Below are positions 1-8,265 of a stretch of DNA of 8,265 bases, piece by piece (the first letter of the stretch is position 1; the number at the start of each line of letters is the position of its first letter). The translations under genes were made by a program, and so were the position numbers. Source of the DNA: a virus; the IMG/VR virus record IMGVR_UViG_3300044695_004155, positions 1-8,265 of that record; one strand, given 5' to 3'. The notes under the pieces are model-generated. The model did not search any database. It was not told the origin of the DNA and worked only from the letters and a program-made list of their open reading frames with translations.

Positions 1-14
1 TGAGCTACGTGTGA
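1..14 (-). tRNA. 5' end of a tRNA gene truncated by the window edge (identity unknown)
   Basis: The reverse complement of 1-14 reads TCACACG-TA-GCTCA. That is a 7-nt acceptor strand, U8-A9, then the canonical GCUC-A start of a D arm. The rest of the gene would lie left of the window. Confidence 0.4.
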
Positions 15-21
15 ATGATTG

Positions 22-94
22 TTGCGGAGGTGAGATTCGAACTCACGATCTTCGGGTTATGAGCCCGACGGGTTAGCCACTTCCCTACCCCGCG
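22..94 (-). tRNA. initiator tRNA-fMet (anticodon CAU)
   Basis: The reverse complement folds as CGCGGGG-TA-GGGA-AGTGGCTAA-CCC-G-TCGGG-CTCATAA-CCCGA-AGATC-GTGAG-TTCGAAT-CTCAC-CTCCGCA-A (73 nt, no encoded CCA). It has a C1xA72 mismatch and three consecutive G:C pairs closing the anticodon stem, both bacterial initiator hallmarks. The anticodon arm is identical to my recollection of E. coli tRNA-fMet. Confidence 0.85.
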
Positions 95-101
95 ATGTTT
101 G

Positions 102-175
102 TGCCGAAACGTGGAATCGAACCACGGACACGAGGATTTTCAGTCCTCTGCTACTACCAACTGAGCTATCTCGGC
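102..175 (-). tRNA. tRNA-Phe (anticodon GAA)
   Basis: The reverse complement folds as GCCGAGA-TA-GCTCAGTTGGTAGTAGC-A-GAGGA-CTGAAAA-TCCTC-GTGTC-CGTGG-TTCGATT-CCACG-TTTCGGC-A (74 nt). The acceptor has 7 bp including one G-U. The T loop, anticodon loop (C-U-GAA-A-A) and GTGTC variable loop are canonical and resemble bacterial tRNA-Phe. Confidence 0.85.
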
Positions 176-226
176 ATAAAATAAAGAAACCTACGTGTTA
201 CCTTATAGCACTACTGGCACCACAGA

Positions 227-252
227 GGTGCCGGGTGGGAATCGAACCCACC
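227..252 (-). pseudogene. orphan tRNA 3' module: T arm plus acceptor-like 3' strand with no 5' half of its own
   Basis: The reverse complement reads GTGGG-TTCGATT-CCCAC-CCGGCAC-C, a perfect T arm. It starts only about 17 nt after the 3' end of the Ala-like tRNA, so a separate cloverleaf does not fit. CCGGCAC can pair 6/7 with the GGGCCGG 5' acceptor strand at 335-341. It also forms a GC hairpin with 216-221 (GGCACC/GGTGCC). Confidence 0.4.
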
Positions 253-268
253 TATTCAGGTTTCATTG

Positions 269-341
269 TGGACCAGATGAGAATCGAACTCACCACAGGT
301 GCATTGCAAGTGCTCCTCGCCCCCTCGGAACATTCCGGCCC
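269..341 (-). tRNA. tRNA-Ala-like gene (anticodon UGC) with a non-canonical D arm
   Basis: The reverse complement reads GGGCCGG-AA-TGTTCCGAGGGGGCGA-G-GAGCA-CTTGCAA-TGCAC-CTGTG-GTGAG-TTCGATT-CTCAT-CTGGTCC-A (73 nt). G3:U70 and A73, the Ala identity set, are present, and the anticodon loop is a good C-U-UGC-A-A. However, U8 and A14 are replaced, the standard D stem does not pair, and there is an A-A mismatch in the anticodon stem. It may be a variant or a decaying tRNA. Confidence 0.55.
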
Positions 342-352
342 ATAAAGAATGT

Positions 353-868
353 TTATCCGTAGTAGAAATCTTTCCAAGAGTCACCCAAAATTTGAGATAT
401 TGTTTTCAAGTTTGAGGCATCAAGTTTTTTAGTGTGTAACATACGATGATGGTTAGGGCATACTATTGTCAAGTTTGAATGGTCGTCTGAACCGCCATTC
501 TTTCTCGGTATTATATGATGTATATCAGTTGTTGATTCACACCAACCACAAACAACACATGGTATATTCATTCGTCTTATTATTTTCTGTTGTGTTCTCG
601 TTGACAGTTCAAGTATTGAATTTGGTTCATCCTTTCTGAATTTACCACGTGTGGATTTTCCAACCGCCTTTGAATGACTAGTACCTCTTGAAAAGTTTGA
701 TTTGTTCATCTCATGTGCTCTTTTCAATGACACACTCAACTTTATCTTTTGTTCTTCAGACATTGGTGGTCTTTTTGCGTTATTGAATTTTGCCGCACAT
801 GATAGAGAACAAAATCTCTTTTGATGTTTTTTCGTCAACTCATGTTGACATTGCTCACAATGTTTCAT
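353..868 (-). CDS. HNH homing endonuclease (N-terminal Cys4 zinc finger, NUMOD3-like segment, C-terminal HNH nuclease)
   Basis: This is a 171-aa ORF. It carries the HNH core DIHHIIPRKNGGSDDHSNLTIVCPNHHRMLH preceded by CVVCGWC, and an N-terminal CEQC...CSLSC. A Shine-Dalgarno AAGGAG lies 5 nt upstream of the ATG (869-880 region). The gene sits inside a tRNA cluster. Confidence 0.9.
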   Translation of the reverse strand: MKHCEQCQHELTKKHQKRFCSLSCAAKFNNAKRPPMSEEQKIKLSVSLKRAHEMNKSNFSRGTSHSKAVGKSTRGKFRKDEPNSILELSTRTQQKIIRRMNIPCVVCGWCESTTDIHHIIPRKNGGSDDHSNLTIVCPNHHRMLHTKKLDASNLKTISQILGDSWKDFYYG

Positions 869-898
869 ACTGTCTCCTTATTCATGGTGTTTACTATA

Positions 899-927
899 AA
901 TATAGTTGACTGTAACGAAAATTACAA
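899..927 (-). promoter_or_regulatory. candidate sigma70-like promoter for the HNH gene (TTGTAA-N17-TATATT)
   Basis: On the minus strand, TTGTAA (927-922), a 17-nt spacer and TATATT (904-899) end 30 nt upstream of the HNH ATG. This is a pattern match only. Confidence 0.3.
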
Positions 928-934
928 ACAAGTG

Positions 935-1025
935 TGCCTCCATCTGGAATCGAACCAAGTCGCACAACCACCCGTCTTTATTGTATGTGCAACGGTTTTA
1001 CAGACCGCTGACGGGAAATGGAGGC
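935..1025 (-). tRNA. tRNA-Tyr-like gene (anticodon GUA), 91 nt, aberrant architecture
   Basis: The reverse complement reads GCCTCCA-TTTCCCGTCA-GCGGT-CTGTAAA-ACCGT-TGCACA-(19 nt)-TGTGCG-A-CTTGG-TTCGATT-CCAGA-TGGAGGC-A. It has a perfect 7-bp acceptor stem, a canonical T loop, a textbook anticodon loop C-U-GUA-A-A, A73 and a long extra arm as in bacterial tRNA-Tyr. Only 10 nt sit where the D arm should be. Confidence 0.55.
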
Positions 1026-1051
1026 ATGGCGTAATAAGTTTTCAATGAACG

Positions 1052-1067
1052 TCCTTCCGAAGAAGGA
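1052..1067 (-). other. 6-bp hairpin capped by a C(UUCG)G tetraloop on the minus-strand transcript
   Basis: In the minus sense it reads TCCTTC-TTCG-GAAGGA. It lies 26 nt upstream of the 5' end of the Tyr-like tRNA. cUUCGg is the classic hyper-stable tetraloop. Confidence 0.4.
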
Positions 1068-1096
1068 GACACAAACCTATGGAATTTTTCCGATAT

Positions 1097-1127
1097 ATCC
1101 AAATTAATTTTTTGTCATAATTTGGAT
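1097..1127. repeat. perfect 10-bp inverted repeat ATCCAAATTA / TAATTTGGAT with an 11-nt spacer
   Basis: Read directly: 1097-1106 is the exact reverse complement of 1118-1127. Confidence 0.7.
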
Positions 1128-1134
1128 TTTCACC

Positions 1135-1161
1135 GTAAGTCTTTGAAATCAAAGGACTTAC
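1135..1161. repeat. 10-bp inverted repeat GTAAGTCTTT / AAAGGACTTAC-type (one G-T/C-A position) with a 7-nt spacer
   Basis: 1135-1144 pairs with 1152-1161. The odd pair is G-U on a plus-strand RNA but C-A on a minus-strand RNA. It shares the GTAAGTCC/GGACTTAC half-site with the terminator at 1183-1214. Confidence 0.65.
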
Positions 1162-1172
1162 AAAGTTATCCA

Positions 1173-1214
1173 CATAAACAAAAAGGACTTACAAGTTTTA
1201 TCCTGTAAGTCCTT
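1173..1214 (-). terminator. rho-independent terminator after the 46-aa ORF
   Basis: In the minus sense it reads AAGGACTTAC-(12 nt)-GTAAGTCCTT, a perfect 10 bp, followed directly by TTTGTTTATG. Confidence 0.7.
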
Positions 1215-1236
1215 CTGAACTGGTGTGTCTTTTTGA

Positions 1237-1377
1237 TTAGGTCATAGACAACTTACAGGATTTTGATGTTGGGAGATACTCACTATTAAATGTGATACCA
1301 CAAAAAATGGCTCCTTTGCGAGTGACTTGTTGTGTCATCGCCGGATATGATTGCCATGTATGTAGTGAGTTGTTCAT
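1237..1377 (-). CDS. small hypothetical protein (46 aa), not in the supplied ORF track
   Basis: My own translation is MNNSLHTWQSYPAMTQQVTRKGAIFCGITFNSEYLPTSKSCKLSMT-stop. AGGACAGGAA lies 5 nt upstream of the ATG at 1375-1377. A promoter-like element lies upstream and a terminator downstream. There is no recognisable family. Confidence 0.45.
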   Translation of the reverse strand: MNNSLHTWQSYPAMTQQVTRKGAIFCGITFNSEYLPTSKSCKLSMT

Positions 1378-1434
1378 CGAATTTCCTGTCCTAAAAGTTA
1401 TGTCTAAATCCATTCTATATCAATAAGTATGTAC

Positions 1435-1463
1435 AATATACTAAAAAGATTCCACAATTCCAA
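1435..1463 (-). promoter_or_regulatory. candidate sigma70-like promoter (TTGGAA-N17-TATATT)
   Basis: On the minus strand, TTGGAA (1463-1458), a 17-nt spacer and TATATT (1440-1435) lie between the 1475 stop and the 46-aa ORF. Confidence 0.35.
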
Positions 1464-1474
1464 ATTTATTTTTC

Positions 1475-1774
1475 TTACCGAATAAAATTATCTACTTTAT
1501 CATACATCTTCTTTGTTTTCCAACCGTAGTTAAATACAAACCAACCTGCAACTTCCTTTGCAATATACTTTGGTTCACGGAATGTCTTTACATATTCGTC
1601 AATGAACCACTTTGTAAAATCAACATCTTCTTCAAGAGTCCATTCACGTTTAGTAAACCAATAAGGTTGTTGAGCGAACTCTTCGTCATATCCTTCAAAT
1701 CCAACACGACGGAACATTTCGTCAAGTGCTTTCATTTGAAATTCGTCAATTTTCTTTTGTTTTCTCGGTGTCAT
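1475..1774 (-). CDS. hypothetical protein (99 aa)
   Basis: The ORF-track entry 1475..1846 would start inside the terminator hairpin at 1834-1869. The internal ATG at 1772-1774 (MTPRKQKKIDEF...) lies downstream of a promoter-like element. I recognise no family. Confidence 0.7.
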   Translation of the reverse strand: MTPRKQKKIDEFQMKALDEMFRRVGFEGYDEEFAQQPYWFTKREWTLEEDVDFTKWFIDEYVKTFREPKYIAKEVAGWFVFNYGWKTKKMYDKVDNFIR

Positions 1775-1802
1775 TTTATTAACTTGTAATTGATTGAATA
1801 CA

Positions 1803-1831
1803 AGTATACGAAAAAAATCTGACATTTCCAA
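1803..1831 (-). promoter_or_regulatory. candidate sigma70-like promoter (TTGGAA-N17-TATACT)
   Basis: On the minus strand, TTGGAA (1831-1826), a 17-nt spacer and TATACT (1808-1803) follow immediately after the terminator T-tract and lie 28 nt upstream of the ATG at 1774. Confidence 0.45.
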
Positions 1832-1833
1832 AT

Positions 1834-1869
1834 AAAAAAGTCTCACACCAAGAAAATGTGAGACTTTTT
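1834..1869 (-). terminator. rho-independent terminator (symmetric A-tract / T-tract, could act in both directions)
   Basis: In the minus sense it reads AAAAAGTCTCACA-TTTTCTTGG-TGTGAGACTTTTT then TATTTGG. The core stem is 8 bp GC-containing and extends to 13 bp through the A/T tracts. It lies 20 nt after the stop at 1889. Confidence 0.8.
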
Positions 1870-1888
1870 GAACTGGTGTGTAATTTTC

Positions 1889-2236
1889 TTAAAGTGCCGA
1901 ATAAATAGCGGCGTATTCTTTCACATTGAATCTTTGTTTTGCCTTGGCTAACATCTCTGTCATCAATTCATTTTCATACTGTTGAATACCATAAGGCATA
2001 GTTCCAGCAATCTTTCTGATTTCAGCAGTGTGGTCAAGTATCTTTGAATACTTTTGTTCTGCTAGAAGTTTAGCGAGTTCAAATAAAGCCTCTGAACGAT
2101 TTGCCTTCTTTGTGGCTTCTCTCATTCTCTTTACAGAGTTTTCAACTTTTTGGCTAATCTTTTCTTCAGCTTCACGAAGTGATTGAAGTGTTTGAGATGC
2201 CTCGCTAAGTAATTGTTTTCTTGACGATAATTTCAT
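1889..2236 (-). CDS. hypothetical alpha-helical/coiled-coil-like protein (115 aa) with MKL...LLSE leader
   Basis: I chose the ATG at 2234-2236 (MKLSSRKQLLSEASQ...) because GGAG lies 7 nt upstream and the upstream gene stops at 2254. The longer track start at 2266 would overlap that gene. Confidence 0.75.
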   Translation of the reverse strand: MKLSSRKQLLSEASQTLQSLREAEEKISQKVENSVKRMREATKKANRSEALFELAKLLAEQKYSKILDHTAEIRKIAGTMPYGIQQYENELMTEMLAKAKQRFNVKEYAAIYSAL

Positions 2237-2253
2237 TTCATGCTCCGATTGTA

Positions 2254-2640
2254 TTAGTCCCACCAAATTCGGTATAGACCTGGTTCTACTTCATCAAGTT
2301 CATCCGCCTTCAAAGAAGCTTTACTTGGTTTTGTATTCGTCTTTACATAAAGACAAACACTATATTCACGACCAAGTTGAATCTTTGCATCTGCTGGTAA
2401 TTTGTCAATCAATTCAGCAGTGAATTCATTATAACCATCAGGAAGAGCTTGTTTCATAATGTTCATTGCATCTTTCTTACTGAACATTGTTGTGTCTTTC
2501 CACATCATGTTATTTCCATCATATTCCTTGGCAAACTTCTTTGGATCTTTACCAAAATTTACTTCCTTTACTGCCTCATTGATAGATTCAGTCAAAAGAC
2601 CAGCAAGTTTCATCATTCGTTGTTTATTCAGTTCCATCAT
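2254..2640 (-). CDS. hypothetical protein (start ambiguous) containing an MMKLAGLLTE leader
   Basis: The track ORF 2254..2649 begins at a TTG. ATG codons occur at 2640, 2637, 2616 and 2613. Starting at 2616 gives MMKLAGLLTESINE..., which matches the N-termini of the two downstream paralogous leaders (ATGATGAAACT vs ATGATAAAACT). There is no clear Shine-Dalgarno for any candidate start. Confidence 0.65.
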   Translation of the reverse strand: MMELNKQRMMKLAGLLTESINEAVKEVNFGKDPKKFAKEYDGNNMMWKDTTMFSKKDAMNIMKQALPDGYNEFTAELIDKLPADAKIQLGREYSVCLYVKTNTKPSKASLKADELDEVEPGLYRIWWD

Positions 2641-2668
2641 ATATTCCAAAAAATACTATGGTTATATT

Positions 2669-2896
2669 CTATAAATATGATTCAGGTTTTGTTTTCTTAC
2701 GGGAAAGTAAGAAATAAAATCCAAAAAATAACAGCGCAACCCCATAGAAGATAACGTCTGTAATCCAGTAGCTTCCTGTCAATTTCATCACGAAGGAAAA
2801 TGCTGCATCGAAGCCCAGTGGATTGAAGAATGTTCCTAAAACCAAACAAGTTTTTGCGAGGTTGTCTCGTAGTTTTTGTCTTTTTACTATTGCCAT
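2669..2896 (-). CDS. small membrane protein (75 aa, two predicted TM helices, basic C-terminal tail)
   Basis: There are two hydrophobic stretches (CLVLGTFFNPLGFDAAFSFV and WITDVIFYGVALLFFGFYFLL) and a charged tail SRKKTKPESYL. GGGAAG lies 5 nt upstream of the ATG at 2894-2896. I prefer it over the overlapping out-of-frame ORF 2697..2909. Confidence 0.7.
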   Translation of the reverse strand: MAIVKRQKLRDNLAKTCLVLGTFFNPLGFDAAFSFVMKLTGSYWITDVIFYGVALLFFGFYFLLSRKKTKPESYL

Positions 2897-3035
2897 CCGA
2901 ACTTCCCATGTATTTACCTTGTGGTGGGCAATCTGTTATTTAGTATAGAACTTTACATATTCAGTATATGTAGCGAATTCAACTGCAATCGTTATCGGGT
3001 TGGAGTATTTTTTACCAAAATGTAGAATTTCTTTT

Positions 3036-4034
3036 TCATCCATTCTCTTGTTCGGAGTTTTCCTTTGCCTTTTGGATAATGAACGGAATCATCTTATCCG
3101 GAGTGATTTTATTCTTACGACCTTCTTGATAAATACGAATCAAAATATCACGGGCAATAGACCCCATCTTTCTTTTTGCGTTATGTATCTCGGAATCTAT
3201 TACAGATTTAGCATCCATCCCTCCAAAAGTCAGTCTCATATTCCATAACTTACTTTCATATTCTTTCCAACCAGATTCTATGTAATCCTTATATGTTCCA
3301 TACTTCCCACGATCATCCGGTTCCATCTGTAACATTCTGCTGTTGAAATCTTTCTCAGCTGTTTGATTTGACATGAAGATAGTATTTAGTTCTTCCTTTG
3401 ATATACCGACGACTTGTGCGATATAAACCAACCTATCTAATCTTTCAGGATTAGGTGGCATGGAAACATATGGACTTTCATTCGGGTCAATTGGTTGTCT
3501 CAAAGAATCCGCTATTTCTTTTGTCACAAGTTCTCCGTCTCTACCCAATTGAAACTTCTTTTCATTTCTGAATAGAAAACATTGGATGTTTGCTTTTAGG
3601 CAGGCATCCATTACAGCCGTCAATTGAGTCATATTACTCCTGTATACAAAGGCATTTAGGAACAAGTCCACACGTTTGATGTAATTCTTTGCATTAGGAA
3701 TTGTTGGTTCATTGGAAAACAAACGGTCTTCGTATTCCGTACCTTGTGGTCCCATCTGCCAGTAATCTATCGCACCACCCTTATATCGTTGTGATAACTT
3801 TCTCCCGTCCAACTCAAGACGGCAATCATATGATTTACCATAACCACCCCACTTTTGGCGAGCGGTTGAAAGGTAGTATTGTTTATTACCACCAAACTTT
3901 GATATATCTGCACCACTCACTATGCTCAACTCAAACTTGTTTTGCTCTATTATCTTCTTAGCAGCTTGGGGTGATGTGAAGTGCCAGACTATATCTGATA
4001 GTGCCTCTGTTAATATGTGTTTTAGTTTTATCAT
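3036..4034 (-). CDS. 332-aa protein with MIKLKHILTE leader and a possible N-terminal ADP-ribosyltransferase-like domain
   Basis: It is a long uninterrupted ORF. The residues are VWH18FTS, QY53Y54LST, GGY65G and TE100YE102DRLF. Their order and spacing recall the His/Tyr/Tyr/Glu pattern of diphtheria-toxin/PARP-type ARTs. I do not recognise the C-terminal 200 aa. The first 8 codons lie inside the 59-bp repeat. Confidence 0.8.
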   Translation of the reverse strand: MIKLKHILTEALSDIVWHFTSPQAAKKIIEQNKFELSIVSGADISKFGGNKQYYLSTARQKWGGYGKSYDCRLELDGRKLSQRYKGGAIDYWQMGPQGTEYEDRLFSNEPTIPNAKNYIKRVDLFLNAFVYRSNMTQLTAVMDACLKANIQCFLFRNEKKFQLGRDGELVTKEIADSLRQPIDPNESPYVSMPPNPERLDRLVYIAQVVGISKEELNTIFMSNQTAEKDFNSRMLQMEPDDRGKYGTYKDYIESGWKEYESKLWNMRLTFGGMDAKSVIDSEIHNAKRKMGSIARDILIRIYQEGRKNKITPDKMIPFIIQKAKENSEQENG

Positions 4035-4069
4035 TACCTATAAATATGAAACTACGGGGAATATCGTCC
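4011..4069. repeat. 59-bp direct repeat, copy A (54/59 identical to 4783-4841)
   Basis: Aligned by hand without gaps. The mismatches are at 4019, 4023, 4053, 4059 and 4063. The copy covers the first 8 codons of the 332-aa gene plus 35 nt upstream. Confidence 0.9.
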
Positions 4070-4071
4070 GT

Positions 4072-4806
4072 CTATAAGTCATCATCGTCCGGTTCAATGT
4101 AGTTGGACAATCTGTTAGGCAATCTGTCCATAATGTTCTCCCAAAATAGTTCTGAACTTACCGCTATGAATACAGGTTTGGAATACTTTTTTCCAAAATG
4201 AAGTATTTCGTTTTCTTTTCCGTTACCACTGGTGAATGAAAACAAATAATTCATTACCTTTTGATTGAAAAAATACTCATCATTTTGTTCTGAAATAAGT
4301 ATACCATGGTCTCCAAATCTTTTAGATACATTTATATTAGACGTCCAACTTTGAACATCTCGGTGTGGTTTATACGATATTGGTTTATCATATCTATAAA
4401 ATACTTCTTTTCCGATTTTTAATTTAGTATAATCATTATAGTCAGATTTTTCTCTTAGAGGAGAAATAATATTCTTCGAAATATCTTGTAAACCTCGATA
4501 GACTTCTGTACCATTCGGGGTTTCTGGTTTAAATATAGATGGAAATTTAGTTTTTGCATTTTTCAACAAGTCTTTATTTTTATACAAATTGTTTGAAATA
4601 GTTCCATCAGGAGTGCGTACCCATTGTAATATGTATGACAATATCTGTTTTTCTATTTTCGTATTCTTTTCAGAACCAGTTTTTCCCTGTAACTTAACGA
4701 GTTTTTTAAAGAAATCATCTTGACTTATATCACCAAACACAATATCACCAAACGCCTTTTTCGGGTCTGTGTCTGTTTCAGATAATATGTCTTTGAGTTT
4801 TATCAT
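4072..4806 (-). CDS. candidate mono-ADP-ribosyltransferase of the R-S-E type (244 aa) with MIKLKDILSE leader
   Basis: The motifs are EVYR104G, QS153WT155S156N and GKE198NE200ILHF. They occur in the order and approximate spacing of ART regions 1-3 (aromatic-Arg, S-T-S, E-x-E followed by hydrophobics). The tail is acidic (EPDDDDL). The CDS call is firm but the product call rests on motifs only. Confidence 0.8.
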   Translation of the reverse strand: MIKLKDILSETDTDPKKAFGDIVFGDISQDDFFKKLVKLQGKTGSEKNTKIEKQILSYILQWVRTPDGTISNNLYKNKDLLKNAKTKFPSIFKPETPNGTEVYRGLQDISKNIISPLREKSDYNDYTKLKIGKEVFYRYDKPISYKPHRDVQSWTSNINVSKRFGDHGILISEQNDEYFFNQKVMNYLFSFTSGNGKENEILHFGKKYSKPVFIAVSSELFWENIMDRLPNRLSNYIEPDDDDL

Positions 4807-4841
4807 TACCTATAAATATGAAACGACGGGTAATTTCGTCC
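4783..4841. repeat. 59-bp direct repeat, copy B
   Basis: It is offset exactly 772 bp from copy A. It covers the first 8 codons of the 244-aa gene plus the last 10 codons and the stop of the 69-aa ORF. Confidence 0.9.
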
Positions 4842-5019
4842 AACCATCCATTTCAAAGATTTCCATAAACATCCCATAGTAATATACGAAACACGTACCA
4901 CCTGTGATAAAAACGTTGGAAATAAATATCTCATCTCCACGTCTAACAATAATCTTTTTATCCTTCAGATGTGTTGGTTGTGTTATCTTCGGATCTACCT
5001 CGTTCTCTAATCGCAACAT
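4810..5019 (-). CDS. hypothetical protein (69 aa)
   Basis: The ATG at 5017-5019 is preceded by AAGGGGGT with a 5-nt spacing. The stop TAG lies inside the 59-bp repeat, 3 nt before the next ATG. I recognise no family. Confidence 0.65.
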   Translation of the reverse strand: MLRLENEVDPKITQPTHLKDKKIIVRRGDEIFISNVFITGGTCFVYYYGMFMEIFEMDGWTKLPVVSYL

Positions 5020-5158
5020 TCGTTACCCCCTTTGTATGTTTTGGTTCATACGGGCAGTGAAGACATCCCGACCCGCAACAAAATGAACGGCAAAGGTGGT
5101 ACTCTTCTGTGAATACCACCTTCCCGTTTTCGTTTATGTAATAATCTTCCTCTTTCAT
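4958..5158 (-). CDS. DUF5522-like cysteine-rich small protein (66 aa)
   Basis: The segment YYINENGKVVFTEEYHLCRSFCCGSGCLHCPY matches my recollection of the DUF5522 signature (F-T-E-x-Y-H-L-x-R-G-x-C-C-G-x-G-C-x-H-C-P-Y). The low-complexity C-terminal 20 aa overlap the next gene by 62 nt. Confidence 0.65.
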   Translation of the reverse strand: MKEEDYYINENGKVVFTEEYHLCRSFCCGSGCLHCPYEPKHTKGVTNVAIRERGRSEDNTTNTSEG

Positions 5159-5163
5159 TTGAT

Positions 5164-5340
5164 TTACTTGGACTCTTTGCCTTCAGACACAGATGCCTTG
5201 TTGTAAGGTGTGATCAACTTCTTGATTGCACCTAACGCCTTACGAGCGTCTCCTGCACCTTTCTTGAACTTTGAATTGTGTCCGACGGTAAACTCATTGA
5301 ACAGATTTGTAATTTGTTCGTATAGTTCTTGCTTTGTCAT
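5164..5340 (-). CDS. histone H1/Hc1-like small basic DNA-binding protein (58 aa), not in the supplied ORF track
   Basis: My own translation is MTKQELYEQITNLFNEFTVGHNSKFKKGAGDARKALGAIKKLITPYNKASVSEGKESK-stop. A strong Shine-Dalgarno CAGGAGA lies 5 nt upstream of the ATG at 5338-5340. The K-G-x-x-A-G-x-A-R-K-A...K-K-L...Y-x-K-A-S layout resembles bacterial histone-H1-like (Hc1 family) proteins of about 60 aa. Confidence 0.65.
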   Translation of the reverse strand: MTKQELYEQITNLFNEFTVGHNSKFKKGAGDARKALGAIKKLITPYNKASVSEGKESK

Positions 5341-5357
5341 AACGTTCTCCTGTTTGT

Positions 5358-5385
5358 ATAATAGTCGGGATTAGTTCCCTGTTAA
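5358..5385 (-). promoter_or_regulatory. candidate sigma70-like promoter (TTAACA-N16-TATTAT) upstream of the H1-like gene
   Basis: On the minus strand, TTAACA (5385-5380), a 16-nt spacer and TATTAT (5363-5358) lie 17 nt upstream of the ATG. This is a pattern match only. Confidence 0.25.
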
Positions 5386-5397
5386 ATAAATAGATTA

Positions 5398-6216
5398 TTA
5401 CTTGATTTCACAAGAATATTTCCAAATGTAGCCACCACCTTGTTTATATTTCCCAATACAACACCCATATACACTATCCCTACCAACTTTCATAACTTCA
5501 GATGCCTCCTGAATGCTCTTGAATGTTTGTAAGAATTTACCATCTTTACTAAACATATCTATTGGTTTCATCTTACTTACTCCCATTTTTTTACGAACTT
5601 CACTCGGAATTACTTTACCTCTATTCTTTGCAGATATTTTTGCTCTCGTTTCAGGAGAATTTGGTTTTCCAAGATTGTGGGGTATAATTTTACCAGAAGC
5701 ATACAACTCTTTCATCTTTTTTGAATGTTCTGGTCTTGGTTTTCCTCTTCTATTTTCCGCATACATAAGATATTTTTCCGATGATTTCATAGATAAGGAC
5801 ATATTCTTTTTATACCCATCTGACCATTGTGTGCCTTTTCTACTTTTACTCATACGTGAACGTGTTTCCGTCGAATGTGACTTACCGTAAAACGGATTAT
5901 TTACACCACTCGCCATTTTACTCATTTTTTCTTTCCACTCATCTGTATGTTCTGCGCCAGTTCCTTTATTGTGCATATTGTAAAACGTTTCATTGTTACC
6001 TGCATCATAATAATTCAACCAGTATTCTTCCCGTTCTACCATTTGTTCAAATGATGAACATTCCTCAATAACTTCTTTCTTGAAGTTTTCTTTGCCGTAT
6101 TTACGGATTGCAAGCTTGAGTAAATGACCAGAACCAAGATAGTTTGGATTGTTTCTACTATCTCTACCGATATATTGCTTCCCGTTCACCAAATTTGTGG
6201 TCTTGTAGATAATCAT
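5398..6216 (-). CDS. GIY-YIG homing endonuclease with NUMOD3 repeats and a C-terminal helix-turn-helix (I-TevI / Seg-like)
   Basis: The N-terminal MIIYKTTNLVNGKQYIGRD...YWLNYY...N is a GIY-YIG catalytic domain. There are at least four S/T-x-E-x-R-x-K-[MI]-S type NUMOD3 repeats (HSTETRSRMSKSRKG, RPEHSKKMKE, SPETRAKISAKNRG, PSEVRKKMGVSK). The C-terminal FKSIQEASEVMKVGRDSVYGCCIGK...GYIWKY is an I-TevI-like DNA-binding module. GGGAGA lies 6 nt upstream of the ATG. Confidence 0.92.
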   Translation of the reverse strand: MIIYKTTNLVNGKQYIGRDSRNNPNYLGSGHLLKLAIRKYGKENFKKEVIEECSSFEQMVEREEYWLNYYDAGNNETFYNMHNKGTGAEHTDEWKEKMSKMASGVNNPFYGKSHSTETRSRMSKSRKGTQWSDGYKKNMSLSMKSSEKYLMYAENRRGKPRPEHSKKMKELYASGKIIPHNLGKPNSPETRAKISAKNRGKVIPSEVRKKMGVSKMKPIDMFSKDGKFLQTFKSIQEASEVMKVGRDSVYGCCIGKYKQGGGYIWKYSCEIK

Positions 6217-6241
6217 AGGAGTTCTCCCGATTGTTATTAGA

Positions 6242-6341
6242 TTAGTTTGTGTTCACTAATAAATATCGGATAAACAGAAAAGCCAGTTGTTTGGGAGATT
6301 GAGAAGTGGGTTGAACACAAACTAAACAATCACAACTGGCT
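6242..6341 (-). promoter_or_regulatory. two interleaved perfect inverted repeats (14 bp and 10 bp) in the reductase/endonuclease intergenic region
   Basis: S1 pairs 6281-6290 AGCCAGTTGT with 6332-6341 ACAACTGGCT. S2 pairs 6242-6255 TTAGTTTGTGTTCA with 6312-6325 TGAACACAAACTAA. On the minus transcript the 3' arm of S1 is followed by TTTCTGTTTAT, so S1 may act as a long-loop terminator. Confidence 0.5.
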
Positions 6342-6357
6342 CTTCAAATTCAACATA

Positions 6358-8214
6358 TCATACTATATCACATTTTCCGCCCGCGCAGGCCGCTTCTTGT
6401 GAGTGTTCCGTGTTATCATCCAACTCTACTATTTTTGACAAATCAACATCTTTTAGAGTTTCCATCAACTGATGATACTTTTCTTCCGTAATATCTTCGA
6501 ATGGGCTCTGGATGTAAGTATGGTCAGAGAATGGTAATACGGAAACTCCATTATATGAGTCACGATTTGTCCATAGCCATTGACCAACAGCTGGCCATTC
6601 ATTTTCACGAATACTTACGGTAGCCGAAATGTTGTGTGTGTTCATTCCATTCTTGTGACCTGGCTTTATCCAATTTTGGTTGAACCACTTTACGCGTTCA
6701 AGAAGTTGAAGTGGAGATTCTGTTCGCATAATCGCGTGGTCTGGTGCCTTTTGTGGGACACCGATAACTGCGGTATCGTGTGGACGGAAGTATTCATCTT
6801 CTACCAATTCAGGGTGGTTGATTGCAAGGTGAGTATAGATTGCCTCGTTCTTACCAACACGAACACGACGGAGGTAATAGTCATTGTGCCAAGCGTGAAT
6901 ACCAGATGAGCATCCTAATGTAAGAGATGATGTTCCAGCTGGCTTGATTGTTGTAATACGAGCAGCTTTATTGATACCGAGAATTCCAGCAACTCTTTCG
7001 TTCTCTTCCTTTGCAACTTTTGTTGCTGACTTTACATCCAACTTCTGAACAACACCTGAGCCAATACCAGTCATACCAACTCCAAGAAGACCGTCTTTCT
7101 CTGTTGTTCTTTGCCAGATTGGACGAAGATAGTGGAAGTCCGTATAACTTGCTTGAAGTGTTCCGATGAATGTTGCCGCACGAACTCGGTCTTCTAAATC
7201 CTGTTGGTCTACTACGTCTGAAACGTTTACTTCACAAAGATTACAGAATTGGAATGGACGTAGACCGATTTCACAACAAGGGTTTGTTCCCCAATCTTTA
7301 TCGTTTGAGAAGTAAATTCCAGGTTCACCTGCGTTTGAAAGTTCAATCTTCTTCCAAAGTCCCTTGAAGAATTCTTCTGTTACTTTACTACGAAGTAATA
7401 CCGCAGAGTTATTTGCCCGTCCACGTTGAGGATTCAATTCCCACCATGCACCAAATTTACACGAAATCATTTCATCATCATCGGCGGAGAATAGTGAGAT
7501 AAGAGCAGCACGACGAATACCACCAGCAAGAACTGCATCTGCAATATGACAAACCATATCGTGAACTTCGATAGGTGACAACTTGTCTCCATCTTTCTTT
7601 AGGTCAAGAATAGCACGAAGTTTCTCAACACAAATACGAAGTGGTTCTGAGCCAGGAGCTTTACCACCTGATGTGATAAGACGGGCACCCTTTGGACGGA
7701 TGTCTGAATAATCAAAACGAAGTGATGAACCGCTTGTGAAGTATGACTTTACAAGGGCTTTGATTGCGTCTGCCCAACCTTCGATTGAGTCTGACACAAG
7801 GAATCGTCTTTCACGGTCTGCCTTCGGTTTACGAATTTCAGGAAGTTTCTCGACGTGATGTTTCTGAACAGAATATCCAACACCTGTTCCACCGAGAAGA
7901 AGGAACATCACTTCACCAAAAGCACGCCAGTCATCAATAGGAAGATATGCACAGTTGTAAATACGATTCGGTGAAATTTCAATTGGCTTACCACCGAATT
8001 GAAGTGAACGCATTGAAGGAAGAACCTTCTTATCATAGACAAACTTATAGACATTTTCAATCTCGTCTTTTAGTTGTGGGTATTTCTTTTGGTGCATTTC
8101 CTTGTTTCGTGTCACCAACTCTTCCCAAGTTTCCCGACGATTGAGTTCAGGTATGAAACGAGAATACTTCATATAAACCGTAATATCCGAAAGGATTCGG
8201 TTGCTAATATCCAT
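6358..8214 (-). CDS. rtpR: adenosylcobalamin-dependent ribonucleoside-triphosphate reductase, monomeric class II (RTPR type)
   Basis: This is a 618-aa ORF with GGAG 6 nt upstream of the ATG. Blocks match my recollection of Lactobacillus leichmannii RTPR: DYSDIRPKGA...GGKAPGSEPL, VLAGGIRRAALISLFSADDDEM, GRANNSAV, NAGEPGIYF, the thiyl-radical loop GTNPCCEIGL...FCNLCEV, TTIKPAGTSS, and a C-terminal redox tail CAGGKCDIV (compare CEGGACPIK). There is no ATP cone. Confidence 0.93.
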   Translation of the reverse strand: MDISNRILSDITVYMKYSRFIPELNRRETWEELVTRNKEMHQKKYPQLKDEIENVYKFVYDKKVLPSMRSLQFGGKPIEISPNRIYNCAYLPIDDWRAFGEVMFLLLGGTGVGYSVQKHHVEKLPEIRKPKADRERRFLVSDSIEGWADAIKALVKSYFTSGSSLRFDYSDIRPKGARLITSGGKAPGSEPLRICVEKLRAILDLKKDGDKLSPIEVHDMVCHIADAVLAGGIRRAALISLFSADDDEMISCKFGAWWELNPQRGRANNSAVLLRSKVTEEFFKGLWKKIELSNAGEPGIYFSNDKDWGTNPCCEIGLRPFQFCNLCEVNVSDVVDQQDLEDRVRAATFIGTLQASYTDFHYLRPIWQRTTEKDGLLGVGMTGIGSGVVQKLDVKSATKVAKEENERVAGILGINKAARITTIKPAGTSSLTLGCSSGIHAWHNDYYLRRVRVGKNEAIYTHLAINHPELVEDEYFRPHDTAVIGVPQKAPDHAIMRTESPLQLLERVKWFNQNWIKPGHKNGMNTHNISATVSIRENEWPAVGQWLWTNRDSYNGVSVLPFSDHTYIQSPFEDITEEKYHQLMETLKDVDLSKIVELDDNTEHSQEAACAGGKCDIV

Positions 8215-8234
8215 AGTTGTCTCCGATTATTTTT

Positions 8235-8263
8235 TTTCTAAAAACGTTTATTTTTGATTCCAA
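8235..8263 (-). promoter_or_regulatory. weak candidate promoter upstream of the reductase gene (TTGGAA-N17-TAGAAA)
   Basis: On the minus strand, TTGGAA (8263-8258), a 17-nt spacer and TAGAAA (8240-8235) are present. It shares the TTTGGAA -35-like word with the candidates at 1831 and 1463. It sits at the window edge and has a poor -10. Confidence 0.2.
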
Positions 8264-8265
8264 AG

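Follow-up and report, generated by a model that had tools for sequence, protein, structure and literature searches.

Neighbouring genes of a freshwater T4-like phage begin in a direct repeat that encodes an N-terminal leader resembling the T4 capsid-targeting sequence

Introduction

Within an 8,265-nucleotide (nt) stretch of viral DNA, positions 1 to 8,265 of IMG/VR record IMGVR_UViG_3300044695_004155 (the window), two adjoining genes for unrelated proteins of 244 and 332 amino acids (aa) start inside the two copies of a direct repeat. Why would two unrelated genes share a start that takes in both the DNA before the ATG and the first ten codons? The original prediction for this DNA proposed a mobile start cassette. 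Here we report that the ten codons encode a leader peptide that begins many unrelated proteins and that is similar to the capsid-targeting sequence (CTS) of bacteriophage T4. We think it likely that the leader acts as the T4 CTS does, on cargo proteins that would be packaged, cleaved and injected, and that the common gene starts double as homology for recombination.

A direct repeat spans the starts of two unrelated genes

The window has a G+C content of 37.6% and carries all of its substantial genes on the minus strand, to which the features below belong. A repeat search returned a single outstanding direct repeat, at 4006-4069 (copy A) and 4778-4841 (copy B), 64 nt long with a spacing of 772 and 89% identity (57 of 64 positions, with a longest perfect run of 29 nt). 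The top pair of an independent ungapped scan over all offsets lay at offset 772 as well, with 54 of 59 positions identical between 4011-4069 and 4783-4841, which reproduces the coordinates and identity of the original prediction. The repeat is well above chance expectation: its score is 44, compared to 13.3 ± 0.9 (maximum 16) in 40 first-order Markov simulations.

Each copy contains, in order, GGACGAnATTnCCCGTnGTTTC, ATATTTATAG, GTA and ATG ATA AAA CTn AAA nAC ATA TTA nCn GA, and thus runs from the last 25 nt of an upstream gene tail through the 10-nt motif ATATTTATAG and a 3-nt gap into the ten codons that open the following gene. In copy B the tail is the coding end of the 69-aa open reading frame (ORF; ...DGWTKLPVVSYL-stop) and the codons (4777-4806) are those of the 244-aa gene (4072-4806), which begins MIKLKDILSE. 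In copy A the codons (4005-4034) begin the 332-aa gene (3036-4034) with MIKLKHILTE, and the frame that corresponds to the 69-aa gene tail still reads ...TIFPVVSYL-stop, as a non-coding, intergenic relic that starts 3 nt past the 244-aa gene's stop codon. After the first ~10 residues BLASTP detects no similarity between the two proteins (best E = 23). On reading both copies we saw no usable Shine-Dalgarno sequence upstream of either ATG (...TATAGGTA-ATG). The original prediction had read both copies on the minus strand in this way, and its statements that the flanking coding sequences are unrelated and that neither gene has a Shine-Dalgarno sequence hold. The same is true of its view that the cassette was copied along with the 69-aa gene tail, as other copies of the cassette have unrelated sequence at that place.

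The leader begins proteins of at least 80 unrelated families

An exact DNA search of IMG/VR for ATGATAAAACTNAAANACATATT, which covers codons 1-8, gave 60 viral loci. The ORFs that follow encode unrelated proteins, all of the form MIKLK[D/N/H]IL plus one free residue and E, that diverge from residue 11; Glu is present at position 10 in 37 of the 41 distinct proteins of this search, where codons 9-10 were outside the search pattern. A degenerate search with the back-translated leader increased the number to at least 119 loci. Pooling of the searches gave at least 155 distinct N-termini, and the 150 proteins of at least 60 aa among the matches listed fall into 80 clusters between which there is no BLASTP link at E < 1e-3. 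The leader M-I-K-L-K-[D/N/H]-I-L-x-E hence begins at least 80 unrelated protein families on at least 119 viral contigs.

Codon usage was counted in the 114 N-termini that are unique to the degenerate search, among the matches listed. Synonymous codons vary freely at several positions (Ile2, ATT 54 and ATA 53; Lys3, AAA 67 and AAG 47; Leu4, TTA 80 and CTN 26), which argues for selection on the peptide. The DNA before the start is far less uniform: TATTTAT lies within 16 nt of the ATG in 18 of 149 leader genes, and the others have a Shine-Dalgarno-like leader, an abutting stop codon or some other context. From this comparison the peptide appears to be the universal feature and the fusion of promoter to ATG a local habit of the window's lineage. 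The mobile start cassette of the original prediction is therefore right in outline, as a regulatory-looking motif joined to first codons; what it missed is the meaning of the peptide, which is a leader on all of these families.

The cassette is also found beyond the two genes of the repeat. L001, a 20.7-kb locus from a 24.9-kb contig of the window's phage, contains a third leader gene 7 kb away, and its 234-aa product (MIKLKDILLE...) is a paralogue of the 244-aa protein. Lake metagenome runs hold contigs that match just 4778-4820 or just 4003-4035 and have unrelated flanks; since these contigs share the cassette alone, it also precedes other genes. Among GenBank phages, a blastn search with the 30-nt leader DNA gave mostly chance matches, and Microcystis phage Mel-JY01 ranked first. 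When the whole Mel-JY01 genome was scanned for the strict leader, its three 332-aa-family homologues were the sole matches. The exact MIKLK form is therefore not an abundant one in this phage, whose ADP-ribosyltransferase (ART) carries a T4-like leader in its place. We found no earlier description of MIKLKDIL or MIKLKNIL in the literature searched.

The leader resembles the T4 CTS and is linked to T4-type head genes

The T4 CTS consists of 10 residues that are sufficient to load proteins into the prohead, with residues 4 and 7 serving in targeting and residues 8 and 10 in processing by the gp21 protease, according to section 2.6 of PMC9026906 (Mullaney & Black 1996 as cited there). The N-terminus of T4 internal proteins (Ip) IPII and IPIII is MKTYQEFIAE. 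The leader described here, MIKLK-x-IL-x-E, differs from it in sequence and, as MIKLKDILxE, matches it in having 10 residues, hydrophobic residues at positions 4, 7 and 8, Glu at position 10 and an (L/I)-x-E end. The likeness extends to the genes. The leader is the sole common part of the T-even Ip proteins, by which they were found, and their genes lie in polymorphic hotspots (PMC12373910; PMC3012670; PMC2839356); ipI, ipII and ipIII of T4, together with more than 30 variants, occupy two polymorphic loci (Repoila et al. 1994 as cited in PMC2839356 and PMC12373910). Here too, small-to-medium proteins with no other similarity have a 10-residue N-terminal leader in common, the loci differ in how many genes they contain, in gene order and in gene identity, and a gp21-family protease is encoded, in this case in leader-bearing relatives. 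The leader-gene arrays differ from the T-even ip loci in that they reach up to six genes.

The closest parallel to the repeat itself is the T4 ipIII/ipII pair. These genes are same-strand neighbours whose starts are 697 bp apart, they share a perfect direct repeat of ~47 nt that covers the Shine-Dalgarno region and the ten CTS codons, and they are unrelated beyond it. In both phages, therefore, a direct repeat that takes in the translation start and the leader brackets neighbouring genes. Upstream of the ATG the two repeats differ: here the common part is a 10-nt motif near the ATG with no Shine-Dalgarno sequence or stem-loop, whereas that of T4 has a Shine-Dalgarno sequence and an upstream inverted repeat. 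The original prediction had compared the locus with the cassettes of T4 hyperplastic regions, an apt comparison in light of the like anatomy of ipIII/ipII. Cassettes of that kind, termed promoter-early stem-loop (PeSL) elements, are non-coding and combine a sigma-70-like early promoter with a GC-rich stem-loop in the hyperplastic regions of T4-type phages (PMC2839356, PMC4122927). The present repeat is similar to PeSL elements as a short conserved gene-border sequence that flanks variable ORFs and provides homology for modular shuffling. It differs in that neither a sigma-70 promoter nor a hairpin was found at it and in that more than half of the conserved unit is coding.

A link between the two leaders is provided by a 388-aa leader-bearing protein encoded in related contigs, which is a PF03496 ADP-ribosyltransferase sited in the head module and has a tblastn match to Alt of Acinetobacter phage Ac42. 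It thereby recalls T4 Alt, an injected ART that PMC9026906 describes as packaged and protease-processed. The Mel-JY01 homologue of this 388-aa ART begins MYEYVEYILE, in agreement with the T4 leader at M1, Y4, E6, an aromatic residue at 7, I8 and E10. Judging from these alignments the 388-aa ART bridges the two leaders, with homologous mature parts on which the leaders appear to be interchangeable.

In many of the fetched loci the leader genes sit in a block with a Peptidase_S77 (gp21-family) protease gene, a scaffold-like gene and a gp23-type capsid gene. The S77 proteases of leader-bearing contigs and of Mel-JY01 match PF03420 with E-values of 5e-32 and 6e-30, and the capsid protein is 33% identical to T4 gp23. 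In the region that corresponds to the T4 gp23 cut site, which lies after F-L-T-E65, these capsid proteins read Q-L-I-[D/S]-E followed by S, A or T; the L-I-[D/S]-E sequence is consistent with a protease of T4-like specificity. The first 10 residues are the least confident part of the AlphaFold models of both window proteins, with mean pLDDT (predicted local distance difference test) values of 51 for the 244-aa and 43 for the 332-aa protein compared to 90.8 and 85.9 overall, and the leader is thus predicted to lie outside the fold in both. The head-gene block also encodes a homologue of ribosomal protein S21, just upstream of the leader-bearing ART (L070 2449-2676, which is Mel-JY01, and L013, L024, L046 and others), with 60-63% identity between Mel-JY01 and the lake contigs.

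The gene content of the window's contig points to an uncultured freshwater phage of the T4 superfamily that is a distant relative of Mel-JY01. T4-typical genes on the contig encode a gp41-type helicase, an RNase H-type exonuclease, RnlA, PNKP, tRNAs and seg-like GIY-YIG proteins. Genes for the helicase and the class II ribonucleotide reductase (RNR) and then the leader genes follow one another in both this phage and Mel-JY01, and the two RNR proteins are 69% identical. The head proteins of leader-bearing head-module contigs from the same lake samples are as distant from Mel-JY01 as that RNR. The T4-like gene content, together with the RNR identity, gene order and origin in the same lakes, probably places the window's phage in the group that has the leader and head module. 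A megablast search of window positions 3000-5400 against GenBank phages gave no matches. The clade differs from T4 in being uncultured, aquatic and distant, as the capsid protein identity indicates.

A promoter-like motif precedes the leader genes

The motif ATATTTATAG occurs four times exactly in the window, each time on the gene strand and upstream of a gene start (868, 2649, 4034 and 4806). The chance expectation is 0.85 with one mismatch allowed, and 0 of 200 shuffles gave four. At 4810-4819 the motif includes the TAG stop codon of the 69-aa gene and ends 3 nt before the ATG of the 244-aa gene; at 4038-4047 its second copy ends 3 nt before the ATG of the 332-aa gene. In L001 there are eight copies with no more than one mismatch, each on the gene strand, and several of these are followed by a ~40-nt 5′ leader with a poly-T run and GGAG. 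This arrangement is like that of a phage promoter, and the motif may act as one. A sigma-70 promoter scan called no site at either repeat copy, no conserved -35 element was present among the eight motif copies, and no terminator-like site was found next to either copy in a scan. No hairpin was detected either, the folding energy of the region being no better than that of shuffles (z +1.75, +0.69).

GGACGA, which the original prediction had put forward as an upstream element, was considered as a -35 box and rejected. It is confined to the two repeat copies of the window, where it forms part of the 69-aa gene tail and, in copy A, of the relic of that tail; every other motif copy has unrelated sequence in this position, and the sigma-70 scan lends it no support. 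We also rejected ATATTTATAG as an opposite-strand T4 late promoter (TATAAATA), as all copies are sense-oriented just upstream of gene starts and several are followed by conserved leaders; TATAAATA was never found on the gene strand of head-module loci. The two genes may be translated from a leaderless mRNA, a reading that the original prediction had offered, or by coupling to the stop codon 3 nt upstream; none of the RNA runs contained this stretch.

The motif also closes genes. The last codons of the 69-aa gene and of the 75-aa gene read ...S-Y-L-stop (4810-4819, 2669-2678; L001 12129), and because this is encoded by TCATATTTATAG, the stop codon and the promoter-like motif of the next gene are one sequence. 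Outside the window, L001 harbors a second repeated cassette (1108-1160, 5718-5770) in which ATATTTATATCATATAAACCAAAGTA, a T-run and GGAGTC precede two unrelated small genes. This cassette likewise consists of a promoter-like motif and a conserved 5′ leader, and a weaker version lies before the gene at 2254-2649 of the window.

Leader genes occupy a variable slot that bears scars of exchange

In the window the two leader genes fill a slot between the 69-aa gene (4810-5019), whose tail ...DGWTKLPVVSYL-stop is kept in all syntenic relatives, and the 75-aa gene (2669-2896), whose end (...ESYL-stop) overlaps the ATATTTATAG motif at 2669-2678. The flanks are kept in relatives and comprise the genes for RNR, the 58-aa protein, DUF5522 and the 69-aa protein on one side and those for the 75-aa, 128-aa, 115-aa and 116-aa proteins on the other. 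Among relatives and lake runs there are six different slot fillings and an empty form. The window and L001 have the 244-aa and 332-aa genes, L067 has one 221-aa member of the 244-aa family, L018 has two paralogues of that family and L043 a single unrelated 138-aa gene (MIKLKHILQE). L180 and L182 contain P0038 (225 aa) and a 222-aa gene followed by a homing endonuclease. Finally, L185 has six leader genes in a row (416, 227, 147, 298, 224 and 337 aa), with the promoter motif at the first alone; the other five abut or overlap the preceding gene.

The empty form was present in three of eight lake-water metagenome runs, as an abundant contig in which 2942 is joined to 4810 with CAA between and 1,867 nt are skipped. 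This joint is an empty slot in a co-existing strain, with depths of 8.2, 13.6 and 9.2 in the three runs compared to 16.9, 17.2 and 9.4 for the full form. Module-level variation in related genomes, which the original prediction had set as its own test, is thus found at this slot. The 772-bp deletion that it expected between the repeat copies was not seen in the assembled contigs of the eight runs, in which rare variants drop out.

Two scars flank the 332-aa gene. The upstream one is the 25-nt relic of the 69-aa gene tail, which the promoter would not need because other cassette copies are without it. The downstream one, at 2936-3043, is a 35-codon relic (MDEKEILHFGKKYSNPITIAVEFATYTEYVKFYTK) that matches the 3′ end of P0038, a further 244-aa-family member, and its DNA is essentially identical to the intact L182 gene. 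From these two scars it follows that the 332-aa gene probably replaced the body of a 244-aa-family paralogue. As read from the upstream relic, a 69-aa gene appears to have once been the immediate upstream neighbour of the 332-aa gene. For further exchange, the perfect 29-nt core of the repeat would offer sufficient homology. A like scar recurs in L185, a relative at 71% identity: behind its homologue of the 332-aa gene, at 6347-6673, lies a truncated 3′ remnant (108 aa) of a 244-aa-family gene that begins within the conserved core.

At the upstream border of the slot, the DUF5522 gene (66 aa, 4958-5158) shares 62 nt with the 69-aa gene, which is read in another frame. L018, L043, L067, L182 and L183 keep this overlap at 62-75% protein identity, and both frames therefore seem to be under selection.

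Cargo proteins

For the 244-aa protein there are 59 homologues, each with the leader, and in this family R104, S153 and E200 do not vary, while E198 is nearly invariant. In 36 of the homologues the motifs Y-R104-G, Q-S153-W-T and E198-x-E200 are invariant or nearly invariant, a pattern that alone does not establish membership. The order R104, S153, E198-x-E200 is as expected of R-S-E ADP-ribosyltransferases and is suggestive of that activity. The ART fold was not confirmed. Pfam and PHROGs gave no match for this protein or for the 332-, 69-, 58-, 75- and 131-aa ORFs; for the 244-aa protein, a tblastn search of GenBank phages and a PDB profile search gave none either, and a Foldseek search of its model (overall pLDDT as given above) against the PDB found no match at E < 0.6. 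Against BFVD, the best Foldseek matches of the model were uncharacterised phage proteins, with an ART exoenzyme 11th at a probability of 0.20. When the 244-aa protein was compared by hhalign with an Alt/ModA/ModB profile, the 16-column leader alone aligned (probability 8%); in this the 244-aa protein differs from T4 Alt and the 388-aa ART, as it is not detectably related to Alt, ModA or ModB beyond its leader. Hence the ART label that the original prediction gave to this gene finds no support in Pfam, PHROGs, the PDB profile, hhalign or the fold search, and we use it for the 244-aa protein as a hypothesis.

In the N-terminal domain of the 332-aa protein, residues H18, T20, S56, R59, E100, E102, D103 and R104 are invariant. 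Its relatives are present in T4-like and jumbo phages, often in several copies. The top three PDB folds for its model are Thermus DarT, as weak matches (E 0.2-0.36, probability 0.69-0.82, template modelling score 0.40-0.43 on the target), and there was no profile match. Other leader-bearing cargo includes the Alt-like ART (PF03496) and zeta-toxin-like kinases, and one leader-bearing protein looks, by eye, like a SleB-type cell-wall hydrolase. These cargo types would fit injected effectors.

Other features of the window and its relatives

Further N-termini recur in this phage group: MKLSSRxQLLxE, in several tandem paralogues, MMKLAGLLTE and MIKMKDLVLE (window 1889-2236 and 2254-2616; L185 6973-8607; ORFs of L018, L055 and L067). 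In the window, the gene at 2254-2616 has the conserved start MMKLAGLLTE, a 10-residue leader of like pattern (hydrophobic at 4, 7 and 8; E10) with which its L067 homologue also starts. The gene at 1889-2236, which starts MKLSSRKQLLSE, belongs to the paralogous set MKLSSRxQLLxE and may carry a second leader type. The three N-termini may represent further leader types or divergent forms of the MIKLK leader.

A GIY-YIG/NUMOD3 homing endonuclease gene (5398-6216) lies between the RNR and 58-aa genes. It is not at that place in L001-L004 and is found at other places in L067, L018 and L180, so that this mobile endonuclease is polymorphic for presence and absence. The gap that separates its gene from the reductase gene has two nested inverted repeats (6242-6345), a perfect 14-nt pair at 6242-6255/6312-6325 and a 14-nt pair at 6277-6290/6332-6345. 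In a region made up of 21-175, 227-294, 353-868 and 933-957, an HNH endonuclease ORF adjoins two tRNA genes (Met, Phe). T-arm-like repeats, GGAATCGAACC..., are located at 231-252, 273-294 and 933-957, where neither ARAGORN nor Rfam called a tRNA; they may be decayed or unusual tRNA genes.

Discussion

Taken together, our data support a model in which the repeat is the common front end of two adjoining cargo genes, made up of the ATATTTATAG motif and ten leader codons. In this model, the leader would dock each new protein onto the prohead scaffolding core, a gp21-type prohead protease would cut it off after L-x-E, and the mature protein would ride in the head and be injected with the DNA. Recombination within the common ~30-60 nt with which all cargo genes start would allow genes to be exchanged, gained or lost in the slot that the 69-aa and 75-aa genes bound. 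Both relics that flank the 332-aa gene, the 25 nt of gene tail in copy A and the 35 codons on the other side, would be scars of such exchanges.

Several observations weigh against this model. Ile7 is encoded by ATA in 105 and Lys5 by AAA in 109 of the 114 N-termini, so that these two codons are far less variable than the others, which leaves room for some nucleotide-level constraint or shared DNA descent at these positions. The leader genes of the window sit among replication and nucleotide-metabolism genes, and the window's own contigs (up to 25 kb) stop short of the head module, so the link to the gp21-type protease runs through relatives and contigs of the same lakes. The gap of 3 nt between ATATTTATAG and the ATG is awkward for the geometry of a T4-late-type promoter.

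The near fixation of the Ile7 and Lys5 codons would also be expected if the repeat were purely a regulatory start cassette, as the original prediction had it, in which a promoter for a leaderless mRNA is followed by an unstructured AT-rich start and the peptide has no role. In line with this, the motif is enriched, strand-specific and always upstream of gene starts, the two ATGs lack Shine-Dalgarno sequences, and the region folds no better than shuffles. The wider set of leader genes argues otherwise, as TATTTAT is near the ATG in just 18 of 149 of them while the peptide is kept in all, five of the six L185 leader genes are without the promoter motif, synonymous codons vary at positions 2, 3, 4 and 8, and E10 and the hydrophobic pattern are kept across the families. 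We consider a purely regulatory role quite unlikely. A decaying, functionless remnant of a recent tandem duplication would account for two direct copies with sharp borders 772 bp apart. The genes, however, are unrelated past the first ~10 residues, 30-43 nt of the repeat are also found in other genomic contexts in the same lakes and on at least 119 contigs, and a third copy lies 7 kb off in the same phage before the 234-aa paralogue. The distribution data already contradict this explanation, which is very improbable.

A different question is whether the leader directs its cargo to the head. The data show an N-terminal tag common to unrelated proteins, from which a destination can be deduced only indirectly, and the tag might instead be an address label for another virion compartment, a phage-made assembly, a chaperone or regulated degradation, and not a head-targeting propeptide that is cut. 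Other partners are conceivable, with export unlikely because the leader has no signal-peptide-like hydrophobic core. Such a destination is itself unlikely in our view. The match to the T4 CTS as set out in PMC9026906 is specific in length, residue positions and the L-x-E ending, leader genes lie inside the protease-scaffold-capsid block, and the leader is borne by an Alt-like ART, the counterpart of a T4 protein that the same source lists as packaged and protease-processed.

Our analysis thus favors the capsid-targeting model, by which the T4 internal protein design would be present in a distant, uncultured freshwater clade with a new leader sequence and a different regulatory front end. More tentatively, with confidence just short of even, we suggest that MIKLK-[D/N]-IL-x-E is a universal pack-and-inject label of a large, mostly uncultured aquatic T4-like clade, carried by more than 80 effector families that include ARTs, kinases and cell-wall hydrolases, and that gene capture and shuffling take place at this label together with its promoter-like motif.

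Injected phage proteins act in the seconds after infection begins. As a short leader is all that they share, it is hard to recognise them by sequence. Those of T4 defeat host restriction systems (PMC12373910). If confirmed, the leader would make it simple to pick out, by sequence, hundreds of candidates for injected effectors and anti-defence proteins among the genes of uncultured aquatic phages, and the injected arsenal of environmental phages could be listed from metagenomes by a ten-residue search. It would also give those who wish to load foreign proteins into phage heads a second targeting peptide, distinct from that of T4. The reach of the leader, at least 80 cargo families, is unexpectedly wide, and its confirmation would mean that the T4 strategy of a common label with recombination at that label is ancient and widespread.

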